A DNA stretch of 63,690 nucleotides, filler included, from Reclinomonas americana ATCC 50394 (taxonomy: Eukaryota), in NCBI GenBank assembly GCA_048213135.1. It is 4 parts of 3 records of this genome, joined end to end, with 100 filler letters (N's around TTAATTAATTAA, not from the genome) between each part and the next. Parts side by side here need not be neighbours in the genome. Positions count along the whole stretch, not along the records: positions 27,190 to 48,663 come from PS015510.1; 3 more parts are not named here. One strand, 5' to 3'. The notes below the pieces were generated by a model. The model was not told where the DNA came from and ran no database searches. It worked only from the letters and a program-made list of their open reading frames with translations. Made by a program: the position numbers and the translations under genes. Position 1 is the stretch's first letter; each line of letters begins with the position of its first letter. Of this stretch, positions 41,722-47,464 are shown one piece after another.

Positions 41722-44700
41722 TTACCACCTAAATCCATGAACACACACTCGCCCATCCTTGCAGCCAATCACCACATGCACCTCTCCATCCGCATCGTGC
41801 GGACTCACGCTGAGCGTGTGCACCGGGCACGACTCGTCGATTTGGAGCTCCAGATCCCAGTTGTCATCCTCCTTCTCCGCCTCCTCGCCCTCCTCCTCCC
41901 CTTCACCGCCACCAACTTGTTCCACCAGCTTCCACAATCGGAGATGCCCGTCGGCGCCGCAGGATAACAGTCGAATTGTGTGGTCGACTTGCCGCGGACG
42001 AAAGGCCACGTCGTACACAAAGTTCTCGTGCTCGCCGACAACCGTGGAGATGACACTGGTGCCGGCGGCCGGCCGCCACACTTGCACATCGCGGTCCGAC
42101 GAACCGCTGGCCATAAAAGGCACCCGACTGGCTTCACCGATCGGCGTGTCGTGTTTCACAGCAATGCCGAACACGGTGCCGGTGTGGTTGAGCAGACGGC
42201 GGCGGTGCAGTACGACGAGCGACTCGGGATCAAAGTTGATGACCAGCAGTGGATGGAGCGACGGAGAGAGCACTTGGCCGGGAACGATCGGACGCAGGTC
42301 GGCACATGCCAACACCACCGTGTCTGCGGGGCGCGCGCAAAAGAAAAGAGTGAGCAGATGGAGTTGGAGGAGGCAACTTGCATGCACGACAGAACCTTCG
42401 GTGAGCGCCAGTCTGTGGAACACGAGGAAGCAGTCGGGCGCAATGTTCGCCGCTCGCGCCTCCTCATTCAAGTCCATGGCTGTTCCGATTGCCGTGTTGC
42501 GAACAATGCACTTGCCATCCAATCCACAGCTCTGTGCCGCCGTGCATGAGAATTAAAGCACACACGCACTCTCTCTATAAAACTCACCGCCAGCAGAGTT
42601 CCAGACGGCGAGTACGCAAGACCCCACACGCCATCTTCGTGGCGATACGCACACTCCCCATCCATGCGTTCCAGAGTGTCCACGTTGACCAAGTGCACGG
42701 AAAAGTCGTCGCCGAACTTGGCGTATGCCAGAGTGATGCCGTCGGGATCTGTAGGCGATTGCGGAGGTGAGTGAGCACAATTCTTGACGATGCGGTGTGC
42801 AGTCACAGGCACCAACGCACTCCACGCAATACATCGTACGGAGCACGGCAGGTCCGACACAAGAACCGTGCTCTCGCCAGTGCTCACATTCCACATCATG
42901 ATTGTGCCGTCGTCTGCGTGCGAGAGATCAACATGAGAGCGACAAGCACGGGGACTATATTTTTTTAGAACGTACCACCAGCACTGGCAACCAGCTCCGC
43001 GCGTTGGGGATTCCATGCCACGCACCACACCGCACTGCGATGTCGTCCCAACACGTTTGGCTCTCTCGCGCAAGCAACCGCACGCTGTTGCAGCTCCTTC
43101 CAGTCGGCATTGGCCTGCCACAGAAATATAAGTAACCGTTTTCATATCCGCACCTCACACAAGAATGCCTGCCACGCAACTGCACGATACGCTCGCCGCT
43201 CCACGTAGCCAGGCACCAACAACCCATTGAACGGCTCTTGTCCAGTGCTATGTGGCGTCGTTGCTGATGAGTGAGCTGCGAGTGCGGCTGCTCAAGGATG
43301 CACGCAACGACAAGTCCGCTGCTTGCACTTCGTCAATCAATTCGTCTATCAAGTGGGGATTATAGCAGGCCATCTCGGCCAGGAACAGCGCACGATAGTT
43401 CGCCACCGTGCTCGGCACCGTCTCGAAAGTGTCGTCAAAGTCGCCGACTTCTGGGTCCTGCGGTCGGCAATGCGTGAGCGACGGGGTGACACTGATGACT
43501 GTCACGACCACACAAAACGCACTGGAATGCGATCAAAGCCATGCAGAGCAGGATGCTCGAGCGCCTCAGCAGCTGATATCCGTCGATCCGGATTGAAACT
43601 CAGCATGCGTAATATGAGATCCTCCACGTCTGTCGTGAGCCGAACGTCAGGCCACTTGGTATATCGACGCCGTTTTTGGTATGGTAACTTACCTGCAAGG
43701 ATACTCGCATTCTGCTCGTCGACATTGTGCAGCATCATGGACCTTATGGACGGTGGGCCAGGGAGGTCCAGGCTGCGATATTTGACACGACTCCGCAACT
43801 GCAACGCGGTCAACACAATGTGTAGCACGGGGAGATCGCCGACTGCACGCACCATCGGGTCACAGTGTTCCGGTGGTGGCATGTCCGATTCGGGTGGTCG
43901 TCCAAGGAAATCCAGAATCAGTTTTAGCTGACCCCGTGCACCCAACTGCGACACAAGGGAAGGGAAGGGTCAATGACAGAGAGAGAGAGTGAGAGAGAGA
44001 GACAGAGTGGGAGATAGGGACACAGACAGAGAGACAAGGAAGAAAAAGAGCTGTTGGGGACGAGGAGAGAGAGAGAGAGAGAGAGAGAGAGAGAGAGAGA
44101 GAGAGAGAGAGACGACGACGACGACGACGACGAGACGACGACGACGACGACGACGACGACGACGACGACGACGACGACGACGACGACGACGACGACGACG
44201 ACGAGACGAACGAACGAACGAACGAACGACGACGAACGAACGAACGACGAACGACGACGACGAACGTACNNNNNNNNNNNNNNNNNNNNCGACGACGACG
44301 AGAGAGAGAGAGAGAGAGAGAGAGAGAGAGAGAGAGAGAGAGAGAGAGAGAGAGAGAGAGAGAGAGAGAGAGAGAAGAAGAGAGAGTAGAGGAGAGAGAG
44401 AGAGAGAGAGAGAGAGAGAGAGAGAGAGAGAGAGAGAGACAGACAGACAGACAGACAGACAGACAGACAGACAGACAGACAGACAGACAGACAGACAGAC
44501 AGACAGACAGAAAAGTTGGAGACAAAGGGAGAAAGCGACTCAGACACATAACATACACGAACGTTACAAACGGAGAAACAAATCAACAGAGAAAGCAAGT
44601 GAGTGTGACAGAGATAGAGAGACAAGAGATAGAGAGAGACAGACAAACAGAAACGCACACGCGCAAAGAGAGACCGGACTAGAGAGAGAGAGAGAGAAGC

Positions 44701-47464
44701 TGGAGACAAACGGAGACATCGACTCAAACACAAACATACATGCACACAAGGATACATCAACAGAGAAAGAATGTGAGTGTGAGAGTGATCGGGAGACAAG
44801 AGAGAGGGAGAGGCAAAGACGGTGACAGAGGGAGACACAAGCAGAAGCAGAGACAGACAGACAGACACGCATACGAAGACAGACCGGGAAGAGAACGAGA
44901 AGCTGAGAGAGAGGGAGAGAGAGAGAGAGAAAAACGCACCAAATCGCCGCGATCAGTACCCGGAAAGAGTGGACGTCGCAGAAACATTTCCTGCGCACCG
45001 CGAGAGTCGTGAGCAGGGCATCATTCACCACAACTCGCAGTACAACTCACGCAACAGCAATGATGCAACCGATTGACCACATGTCGGCCTTGTCGGTGTA
45101 ATGCGCCTGACTGCTGTCGCCTGGTCGCATGAGAATCTCTGGTGGTCTGTAGTAGACCGTAATCACCGACTGTGGCACGCACACCAGTAAGAGTGAGCGG
45201 CGGACAGCACGGTGTGGTGCATGAAAGAGACGAACACACCGAGCTCATGGGCACATCCTTCGCTGGTGCGAGTCGAGCCAAGCCAAAGTCGCATAACTGA
45301 GAGAAGGAGCTGTTGAGCAACATGATGAGAAGCACAAGGCGCCGAAATGCAACCTCACCTTGATGCGACTTGCGCCAGAGAGCAGCAAGTTGGCCGGCTT
45401 GAGGTCGCGATGCACCAGGCGATGCCGATGCATAAATTCAACGCCGCTGACCAGCTGAAACACCCACTCCAGCAGCAACTCTGCCGTCAGGCCTTGTGAC
45501 GAGTACTTGAGCAGGGAATGCAGATCCACGGCCTGGACAAACAACAAATCATTATGAGGGAGGCGATACAAGGACGTGCATGGAATCGACGCACCATGAG
45601 CTCGGTCACCAGGAAAACGTCGTCAAAGTGCAGCAGCGAGGCAGGGCGGGTGATGTGAAGTATTGGCACGATCTGTGTGAGGGAGAGGGAGGGAGAAGGG
45701 TAAGATGAATGCCACACACGGACTAGAGGAGAAAGCGAGGAAAGAATTCTTTCCCTCTCTGTCAAATATACGCACCGACGGATGCGGTGAGCAGAAGCGC
45801 AAGATCTTCAGCTCACGCAGGTATTTCCGTGCTCTTCTCAATCCCGGAGCACCAGCAAACATGGCATCCGCATACGCCGCCTCTGGTGGCTCCTGCTTCT
45901 TGATCGCCACGAATACCGCAGTGTCCTCGTCGTAGGCAAACCTGCGCGGAGAGGGAGAAGGGTGTGAGGGGGAGGGGAGGACAGCGGGAGGGGGGAGAGG
46001 GAAAGGGAGATCAACGAGCACGATTGTGTCGCATACTTCGCGGTTGACAAGCCAGAGAAGCAATGTAGCCAACACATTGAGTGTATGGAAGAGAGAAGAG
46101 AATAAAGCAAGCAGACATCCCCGTGACGTGCGTTGGGAGAGAGTAAAAACACGCAGAGGGTAGGCGAATGGAAGAGAGGGACAACGGAGGCAGGAGAGGA
46201 AATCAACAGAGCGTAGGGCGAAAGAAACATGACAACGCGCAGAAGGCGTGCAGAGGAGGAGGAATGGAGAAGGAAGTGACGAGAGGATAAGGGTACGCGT
46301 GTGCTTGATGAAAGAAACATGACAACGTGCAGAGAGTATAAGACGGAGCGAACGTCCAGACTGCACTTCCTGCCGAGCAGAGGCAGCAAGTGGCGGAATG
46401 GAAGACTCATGTCACTCATCCCAAAGTGCCCGGCAAGGTGAGGCTGCGAACAAGCTTTTTCTCATTCTCGCAATGCACTACAATGGGGTGGCGTCTTGTC
46501 TCCGGCCTTATCACACCACGCAACACTGTCGTTCCAAACGCCCCCGACGCCACACGATACATCTGATGCCCATCGCGTCCAAACGACGGAAAGCGGAAGC
46601 GATTCTCCACGTCAAAGATCACCGAGGTTGTCACATTCGTCGCTCGATTCACCACTGCATGACGAAGGAGGAGGGAGGTGAGAGGAAGGGACGAAAGAAC
46701 AATGGGCTAAGGCAAGGCGACAGACTGGTCTGCAGCAGAATGAACCCCAAGGTGAAAGACACAGATCAAGGGCACAGGCTGACTACAGGATGAGTTCCGC
46801 AGGAGAATGGACCGTGAAGAATGCACGGATCACGGTGAGGCTGATAGCAGAAAGGACCCCAAAGTGAAGTGCACAGATCCACGGCGCAGGCTGACAGCAG
46901 AATGGAACCCAAGCTAACAGTCAAGGGCATAGGCTGAGTTCTGCTGCAGAATGAACTCCCCAAGCTGAAAGGCATAGATCACTTATGCAGGCTGAACAAA
47001 CAGAGGAGTAAACCAAGAGCGCATCGCCAGCAAAACAGCTCGGCAGTCGAGGTCCGAGAATGTAACCCAAGTTGATAAAAATGCAATGCATTGATCAATG
47101 GGAAGGCACAAAGAGAGAGAGAGAGAGGAAGTGTGTGCGTGTGTGTGAGAGAGAGAATGTGAGTGCAGGTGTCAGAGGGAGCTCGAAGTGAGCAATGCAT
47201 CGATTCCCTCACACTCACACACACATGCACACTCACTCTCACACACTTCTCTCTCTCACAACACACACTTCCCTCCCTTTCTCTCTCTCATCCTCTCTCA
47301 CCCTCTCTCCCCCTCGCGAGACAACACACACAAGCACAAAACACCAAAAAACAAAACACCTCACCTCTGACCACCACTCGCCGCCTTCCCCCAGCCTCAC
47401 ACTGTCTACACAAGCCCCACTGTAGCCGCCTCTCCGCCACAGGCTCCTCGCCTCCCTCAGACAT
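41722..47464 (-). CDS. Atypical MAPK-like CMGC kinase fused to C-terminal WD40 repeats
   Basis: Kinase motifs ASGAFGTTVFAYD, VAIKK, YLRELKILR, FDDVFLVTELM, HRDLKPANLL, DFGLAR, YYRPPE, DMWSIGCIIAE and PDRRISAAEALEHP. The 61-nt intron 43308-43248 links in frame to WD40 exons (HRSAVWCVAWNP..SAGDDGTIMMWN; HEDGVWGLAYSP; SGSSDRDVQVW; SCGADGHLRLWK). First exon and 3' end are uncertain. Confidence 0.85.

Follow-up and report, generated by a model that had tools for sequence, protein, structure and literature searches.

In a stretch of 63,690 nucleotides (nt) from the draft genome of Reclinomonas americana ATCC 50394 (assembly GCA_048213135.1; hereafter the window, by which we mean the whole of this stretch and to which all positions refer), a gene on the minus strand, extending from about position 47464 to 41722, would encode a protein of 840-849 residues in which a linker of about 50-60 residues connects an N-terminal CMGC serine/threonine kinase to a C-terminal WD40 beta-propeller of approximately seven blades. 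The kinase frame appears to end at a TAG lying between the two halves. Judged from splice signals, reading frame, the missing start codon of the propeller and codon usage, which are the reasons for our preference, the best model is a single gene in which this TAG is the 3' end of a 61-nt intron (intron 12) joining kinase and propeller, and we consider this model probable.

Splice signals and reading frame of intron 12

The exons were assembled by coordinate from the minus-strand reading of 47700-41500, resulting in a model of 18 exons that begins with an ATG at 47464, ends with a TAA at 41724-41722 and comprises 2550 nt or 849 codons; all features of the gene given below lie on the minus strand. 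Intron 12 (43308-43248) is a predicted GT...AG intron of 61 nt with a GTTGCGTG donor at 43308 and a branch-like CTCAC at 43275-43271. Its final three bases are the TAG at 43250-43248, which at the same time closes the kinase frame. Once the intron is taken out, 43309 and 43247 become neighbours without a shift of frame, and with a second junction at 43154/43114 the fused frame is open down to the TAA. The earlier note on this DNA had proposed the intron with these features (GTTGCGT at 43308, a CTCAC, the TAG at 43250-43248 and the length of 61 nt), all of which are correct on the minus-strand reading, and its claim that junction 43309/43247 is in frame with the WD40 repeats is borne out by a frame that stays open through exon 13 into the WD40 exons.

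In its architecture intron 12 resembles the other introns of the model. The CTCAC lies at -28 from the 3' end, as similar motifs do in introns 1, 2, 6 and 15 (-27/-28), and its length is unremarkable, since the other 12 short introns, among which a doubtful 39-nt intron 13 is not counted, measure 54-72 nt. The donor octamer GTTGCGTG is the same as that of introns 2 (46517-46524) and 7 (45048-45055), both of which are anchored by kinase motifs: the former by the unbroken spacing between glycine loop and VAIKK in our own motif comparison, the latter by a conserved segment that follows the P+1 loop and spans the junction. These two donor positions are fixed because other choices disrupt either that spacing or that segment. 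Two further acceptors for the donor at 43308 were tried and rejected, namely a CAG at 43266-43264, which would give a 45-nt intron with the branch motif 8 nt away and a product that is still kinase-only, and a CAG ending at 43180, which leads into a stop.

GTTGCG as a donor class

The octamer GTTGCGTG is found in nine copies in the window as against 3.67 expected, a number reached by none of 100 shuffles, and four of the nine copies are on the coding strand of the kinase-WD40 gene. When GTTGCG, CTCAY and YAG are counted as a composite at intron spacing, five instances are obtained against 0.82 expected (one of 100 shuffles reaches five), and the signal of intron 12 exceeds chance. The corresponding composites of the other classes amount to six for GTGCGT (1.05 expected) and seven for GTGAG[GT] (2.27 expected), and because its own composite is about as frequent as these, GTTGCG does not qualify as an exotic "shifted" site and ranks among the roughly three main donor classes of the window. 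The description of the intron 12 donor as shifted thus overstates its oddity, as the counts against shuffles make it an ordinary class here; its sequence may be viewed as GTGCGT enlarged by a single T.

Further instances are available outside the gene in question. An intron of the neighbouring glycerol-kinase gene (47945-47882) begins with GTTGCGTC and is fixed by alignment to five homologues, with a score of 108 as against 80 for the next best choice. Throughout the window, a branch-like motif and an AG at 45-85 nt follow 23 of 55 copies of GTTGCG, 19 of 81 copies of GTGCGT and 20 of 88 copies of GTGAGT. GTTGCG sites were recorded, for example, on the minus strand at 46524, 45055, 43308, 43180, 47945, 47643, 28188, 28518 and 27737 and on the plus strand at 58539. 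A scan for donors by hexamer enrichment was too noisy to be informative. In practical terms, introns of this class would escape gene finders trained on standard donors, and at the present locus one unaware of it would stop the kinase at the TAG and leave behind a WD40 gene that lacks a start; such an annotation error could recur genome-wide wherever GTTGCG donors serve.

The WD40 propeller and its missing start

The propeller is encoded by exons 14-18 (43114-41722, with the stop TAA at 41724-41722), the individual exons being 43114-42976, 42913-42821, 42748-42588, 42531-42396 and 42323-41722. In the translation about seven repeat units can be discerned by eye, and the Pfam family PF00400 matches one repeat at 30.6 bits (cut-off 27) and two more at 17.2 bits; a Pfam match to a WDR62-type propeller (E 0.0049) is far below the cut-off of that family. 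An exhaustive search with the WD40 piece, performed in a collection of 1.8 billion representative proteins, returned 7323 proteins at E<=1e-3, and the best 150 of these 7323 are all multi-WD40 proteins, most of which align to one canonical repeat. Just downstream of the WD40 stop, at 41300-41720, a unit of about 60 nt is repeated several times, as judged by eye.

Between the junction (residue 443) and a pair of methionines at residues 525/526 there is no in-frame methionine, i.e., for 82 codons, and the pair itself lies inside the first WD repeat. An in-frame ATG is likewise missing from exons 13 and 14, and upstream of exon 14 its frame runs into a TGA at 43144-43142. Since no methionine precedes the first repeat and the TGA closes the frame above it, the propeller has no conventional start of its own, and the 82 codons lacking an in-frame ATG agree with the earlier statement that these repeats have no convincing start.

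The coding quality of the exons was assessed with a codon log-odds model trained on those coding sequences of the window that homology supports (5751 nt), the scores of individual exons being leave-one-out values. Exons 16-18 score between +0.32 and +0.49 per codon and the frame is intact over five exons, or about 370 codons, for which reasons we argue that the propeller would be expressed. Exon 12, on the kinase side of the junction, likewise has a good score (+0.52 per codon).

Weighing of the single-gene model

A number of findings speak against joining the two halves. Among the 17 modelled introns, intron 12 is the only one with a TAG acceptor, the other 16 ending in CAG, and its acceptor also has the lowest pyrimidine content of the 17 (0.47), while its donor scores 1.1 on a single weight matrix. 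Exon 13, immediately beyond the junction, scores +2.95 in the fusion frame, which is weak compared to the mean of +16.9 (sd 7.8) of true 31-codon windows. A rival ATG at 43227 is able to reach exon 14 in frame, and the draft assembly has many gaps (21 N runs in 63.7 kb) and, close to this gene, at least one piece that appears mis-oriented. As regards homologues, the WD40 piece gave 19 generic matches in a search of longer proteins (the best being 39% identical over 33% of the query), the kinase C-lobe gave no match in such a search, and neither a fused nor a split orthologue is among the 150 listed of the 7323 matches of the exhaustive search. Two metagenome scans gave no match either.

With regard to the splice sites, the two GTTGCG donors fixed by homology also score low on the single matrix (3.0 and 3.8); as the donors form two classes and proven GTTGCG donors score low too, a single donor or acceptor weight matrix is uninformative here. 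A broad scan gave C at position -3 in 59 of 86 candidate introns and T in eight, and the reversed-sequence control (96 candidates) had near-even bases at that position, so that TAG acceptors at first had the look of noise. TAG acceptors are also present in three homology-supported introns of the neighbouring glycerol-kinase gene, placed by spliced alignment at 49779-49845, 47945-47882 and 47781-47715, and because of these three the objection concerning the TAG acceptor falls.

The score of exon 13 can be set beside those of the alternative frames, which are -1.17 for the second and -22.9 for the third, off-frame 31-codon windows averaging -16.4. Expressed per codon (+0.10), it stands alongside exons 9 (-0.06), 14 (+0.08) and 15 (+0.09), all of which are fixed by homology. 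The earlier note had exon 13 end at 43154 (43247-43154), followed by an intron of 39 nt (43153-43115) that is an outlier against the 54-72 nt of the other 12 short introns and has the weakest signals in the model, with no branch motif of the CTCAY or CTGAC type. A 66-nt intron at 43180-43115, which contains the 39-nt version, has a GTTGCGTG donor at 43180, uses the same CAG acceptor and runs from phase 0 to phase 0, is probably the likelier of the two on these signals, in which case exon 13 would end at 43181. The exon thus shortened scores +3.72 over 22 codons, as against -0.78 for the nine codons that it loses. Neither version disturbs the fusion frame, the product being of 849 or 840 residues, so that of the earlier proposal for junction 43154/43114 the reading frame stands and the 39-nt intron is probably to be replaced by the 66-nt one. 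An ATG inside the 39-nt intron was rejected, as it enters exon 14 in the wrong frame.

The doubtful nature of this second intron leads to another reading, in which intron 12 is spliced and the next intron is kept, so that the product would be a kinase with an alternative tail of 34 residues ending at the TGA at 43144-43142, and the WD40 exons would be either a remnant or translated from an internal start such as methionine 525/526. The weak coding of exon 13 and the poor signals of the 39-nt intron with its missing branch motif would suit such a product, but it leaves unexplained an intact, well-scoring propeller of about 370 codons over five exons, a start at 525/526 would cut the first WD repeat, and an in-frame GTTGCGTG intron of normal length (66 nt) is on hand. 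We regard it as very improbable, and as the least credible of the readings weighed in this section.

The rival ATG belongs to a scheme of two tandem genes, one of which would be a kinase of 461 residues ending at the TAG at 43250-43248 and the other a WD40 gene starting at ATG 43227. The first exon of this stand-alone gene would be 43227-43159, in another frame, with a GTGAGG donor at 43158 (introns 1 and 5 have donors of this class), and a 44-nt intron would then lead in frame to exon 14, all of these elements being present in the sequence. The kinase is complete ahead of the TAG, the propeller is a self-contained domain, and the failure to find a fused orthologue either in the search of longer proteins or among the matches listed in the exhaustive one is what separate genes would lead one to expect. 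However, the proposed first exon scores -5.11 over its 23 codons, six of which (26%) are for cysteine or tryptophan; the 44-nt intron is outside the 54-72 nt range; the ATG lies only 20 nt (43247-43228) past the stop, which leaves no space for a 3' untranslated region, a promoter and a 5' untranslated region; and the complete intron signal at 43308-43248 is left unaccounted for. Two separate genes are therefore unlikely in our view, though this is the strongest of the rival readings.

Finally, an error of assembly or sequence could have produced the present picture, if a small indel or a collapsed repeat hides the start of the WD40 gene or if the two halves have been wrongly juxtaposed. The many N runs mentioned above make such an error conceivable, as does the adjoining glycerol-kinase gene, which is split over both strands across two gaps, but the region of the junction itself (44269-40265) holds no N and all ten exons in it keep the frame with consensus splice sites. 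The kinase C-lobe, intron 12 and the propeller thus lie on one gap-free stretch, and because no N interrupts it their adjacency is not a scaffold join. An artefact of this kind appears to us somewhat less probable than two tandem genes, and a single gene spliced at intron 12 is the reading retained in what follows.

The kinase and its exons

The N-lobe and catalytic part of the kinase are assigned to exons 2-8 (46654-44940), in the translation of which the glycine loop, VAIKK, HRDLKPAN, DFG and the PPE/P+1 region are found, the catalytic motifs (VAIKK lysine, HRDLKPAN, DFG and PPE segment) being complete. The coordinate model places these exons at 46654-46525, 45941-45776 and 45672-45595 (exons 2, 3 and 4) and at 45532-45359, 45296-45240, 45169-45056 and 44990-44940 (exons 5, 6, 7 and 8). 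The C-lobe and a C-terminal extension, recognized by translation and by profile and PDB matches, are assigned to exons 9-12 (43945-43309), i.e., 43945-43853, 43798-43693, 43629-43523 and 43457-43309.

The Pfam Pkinase profile matches exon 5 (E 7e-11) and exon 7 (E 1e-7). In the PDB, the best matches of exon 5 are CDK6 (E 3e-10) and MAPK7 (E 2e-9). CDK8/Ssn3, a Giardia CDK and CDK12/13 were retrieved with exon 7, and the fungal MAPK MPS1 (E 7e-5) and CDK4 (E 1.5e-4) with exons 9-11. The exon holding the alpha-C region matched nothing in the PDB at E<=1; by eye its helix motif is presumably more of the MAPK than of the PSTAIRE type. For exon 12, the C-terminal extension, the PDB provided no meaningful match (the best, at E 1.4, being a xylanase), and its resemblance to the "DP.." segment of MAPKs is by eye only. 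Residue 2 of exon 7 aligns with CDK2 residue 163, and counting back from there, on what we take to be the CDK2 and ERK2 numbering, both the T and the Y position of the TxY motif are occupied by serine. As the PDB matches are split between CDKs and MAPKs and the TxY positions are Ser and Ser, the predicted kinase is filed as a member of the CMGC group that is CDK/MAPK-like and not a MAPK proper. The label MAPK-like given to it previously is apt insofar as a CMGC core with MAPK matches is concerned, and it goes too far in that CDK matches are equally present, the TxY is missing and the extension is unmatched.

The putative exon 1 (47464-47365, with the start ATG at 47464-47462) was placed by frame and a GTGAGG donor and is the least certain exon of the model. 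It scores -0.12 per codon, which is non-coding-like, and an N gap (47534-47553) is only 70 nt away, so the start of the kinase may lie elsewhere or inside this gap. Intron 8 (44939-43946) is of 994 nt as assembled, including a 20-N gap at 44270-44289, and is nearly all microsatellite between 43990 and 44900, where long stretches of (CT)n, (GTCT)n and (CGT)n flank the gap; with such a gap in its midst its length is not reliable. Introns 9, 10, 15 and 17 (43852-43799, 43692-43630, 42820-42749 and 42395-42324) are multiples of three and stop-free, and their retention would therefore keep the frame. Of these, intron 9 looks coding by its codon score (+0.28 per codon), and the translation of intron 10 aligned to an "LP...FP" segment of a fungal MAPK, its codon score being non-coding-like (-0.15). 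All four are modelled as introns, though they may alternatively be coding.

Neighbouring loci

The glycerol-kinase gene adjoining the kinase-WD40 gene is represented by two portions with gaps between them: its residues 1-119 are read from the minus strand at 48079-47595 and its residues 133-509 from the plus strand at 48855-50510. The piece at 47554-48663, bounded by the N runs 47534-47553 and 48664-48707, seems to have been placed in the scaffold in the wrong orientation, and if it were flipped the glycerol-kinase and kinase-WD40 genes would be divergently transcribed. The best matches of the glycerol kinase (49054-49800) are only 47-53% identical and come from early-diverging fungi, insects, Dictyostelium and a green alga, for which reason this organism appears to be without a close relative in protein collections.

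Elsewhere in the window, Pfam matches identify two galactosyltransferase-like open reading frames (4599-5651 and 7263-9311), a TMEM131-like gene (15662-22486), a cytochrome P450 (27596-28793), an actin-related open reading frame (31694-32794) and an exon of a Ras/Rab-like GTPase (60580-61038), all of them on the minus strand, as well as Rad4/XPC (54957-57367) on the plus strand. An open reading frame of 836 residues at 50664-53171 on the plus strand gave no Pfam match.

Discussion

If the single-gene model is correct, splicing of intron 12 would fuse the two halves, and its TAG would have two roles, being the 3' splice site in the process of splicing and a stop codon in unspliced RNA. The propeller would then most likely serve the kinase in cis, as a module that docks or targets its substrates or regulators, much as WD40 domains serve myosin heavy-chain kinases and separate WD40 scaffolds serve MAPK modules. 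As the TxY is absent, activation by MAP2K-type dual phosphorylation is unlikely and the kinase would presumably not be controlled in this way.

If intron 12 were retained, translation would stop at the TAG and yield a kinase of 461 residues. A stop codon located upstream of splice junctions often marks a transcript for nonsense-mediated decay, not for translation. The stop in the retained intron precedes five further predicted splice junctions, and a transcript retaining it may for this reason be degraded. It is conceivable, though rather doubtful, that the combined splice site and stop constitutes a two-state switch in which splicing gives kinase plus propeller and retention gives the 461-residue kinase, and which tunes the targeting of a TxY-less, MAP2K-independent CMGC kinase in a lineage-specific fusion.

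Comparison with known kinase-WD40 proteins

The order of kinase followed by WD40 is an established architecture, being present, with the kinase at the N-terminus, in ten of the 169 WD40 proteins that we fetched. Like the modelled protein, these ten have an N-terminal kinase and a C-terminal multi-blade WD40 region, whereas their kinase domains are only 24-38% identical to it and most of the proteins are much longer (675-2016 residues). We take them to be Hanks-type serine/threonine kinases of the bacterial PkwA type. Among eukaryotes, LRRK2 and Vps15 are kinases with C-terminal WD40 domains for protein interactions, LRRK2 being TKL-like and Vps15 belonging to a group of its own; unlike the modelled protein, they have extra domains between kinase and propeller.

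The idea of a built-in scaffold calls to mind MORG1 and WDR62, which are WD40 scaffolds of MAPK modules and act in trans. The same is reported for HAM-5 of Neurospora, a WD40 scaffold of a MAPK module that also acts in trans (PMC4238974). All three pair WD40 with a MAPK-type kinase but do so as separate proteins, and no similarity of the modelled propeller to any of them was seen beyond generic WD40. No description of a MAPK proper fused to WD40 was found in full-text searches of the literature, which is weak evidence of absence.

In myosin heavy-chain kinases the WD40 domain targets the kinase to its substrate. Those of Dictyostelium (A-D) share the combination of kinase and C-terminal WD40 with the modelled protein, but their catalytic domain is an atypical alpha-kinase and not a eukaryotic protein kinase of the CMGC type, and four of the six alpha kinases of this organism contain WD40 repeats according to its kinome survey (PMC1420674). 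In the corresponding table of the Phytophthora kinome, WD40 is found with one kinase of the "Other" group (PMC3019232). The same Dictyostelium survey reports WD40 repeats in 14 kinases, including some classed as "CMGC-unique" (Goldberg et al. 2006, PMC1420674), and these, likened here by their description only, resemble the modelled protein in having a CMGC kinase and WD40 in one polypeptide of a protist. The theme of kinase plus WD40 is already known, and the fusion, if true, would open no new one; it would add one case to it, that of a CMGC kinase with a protein-docking propeller of its own in an organism without a close sequenced relative.

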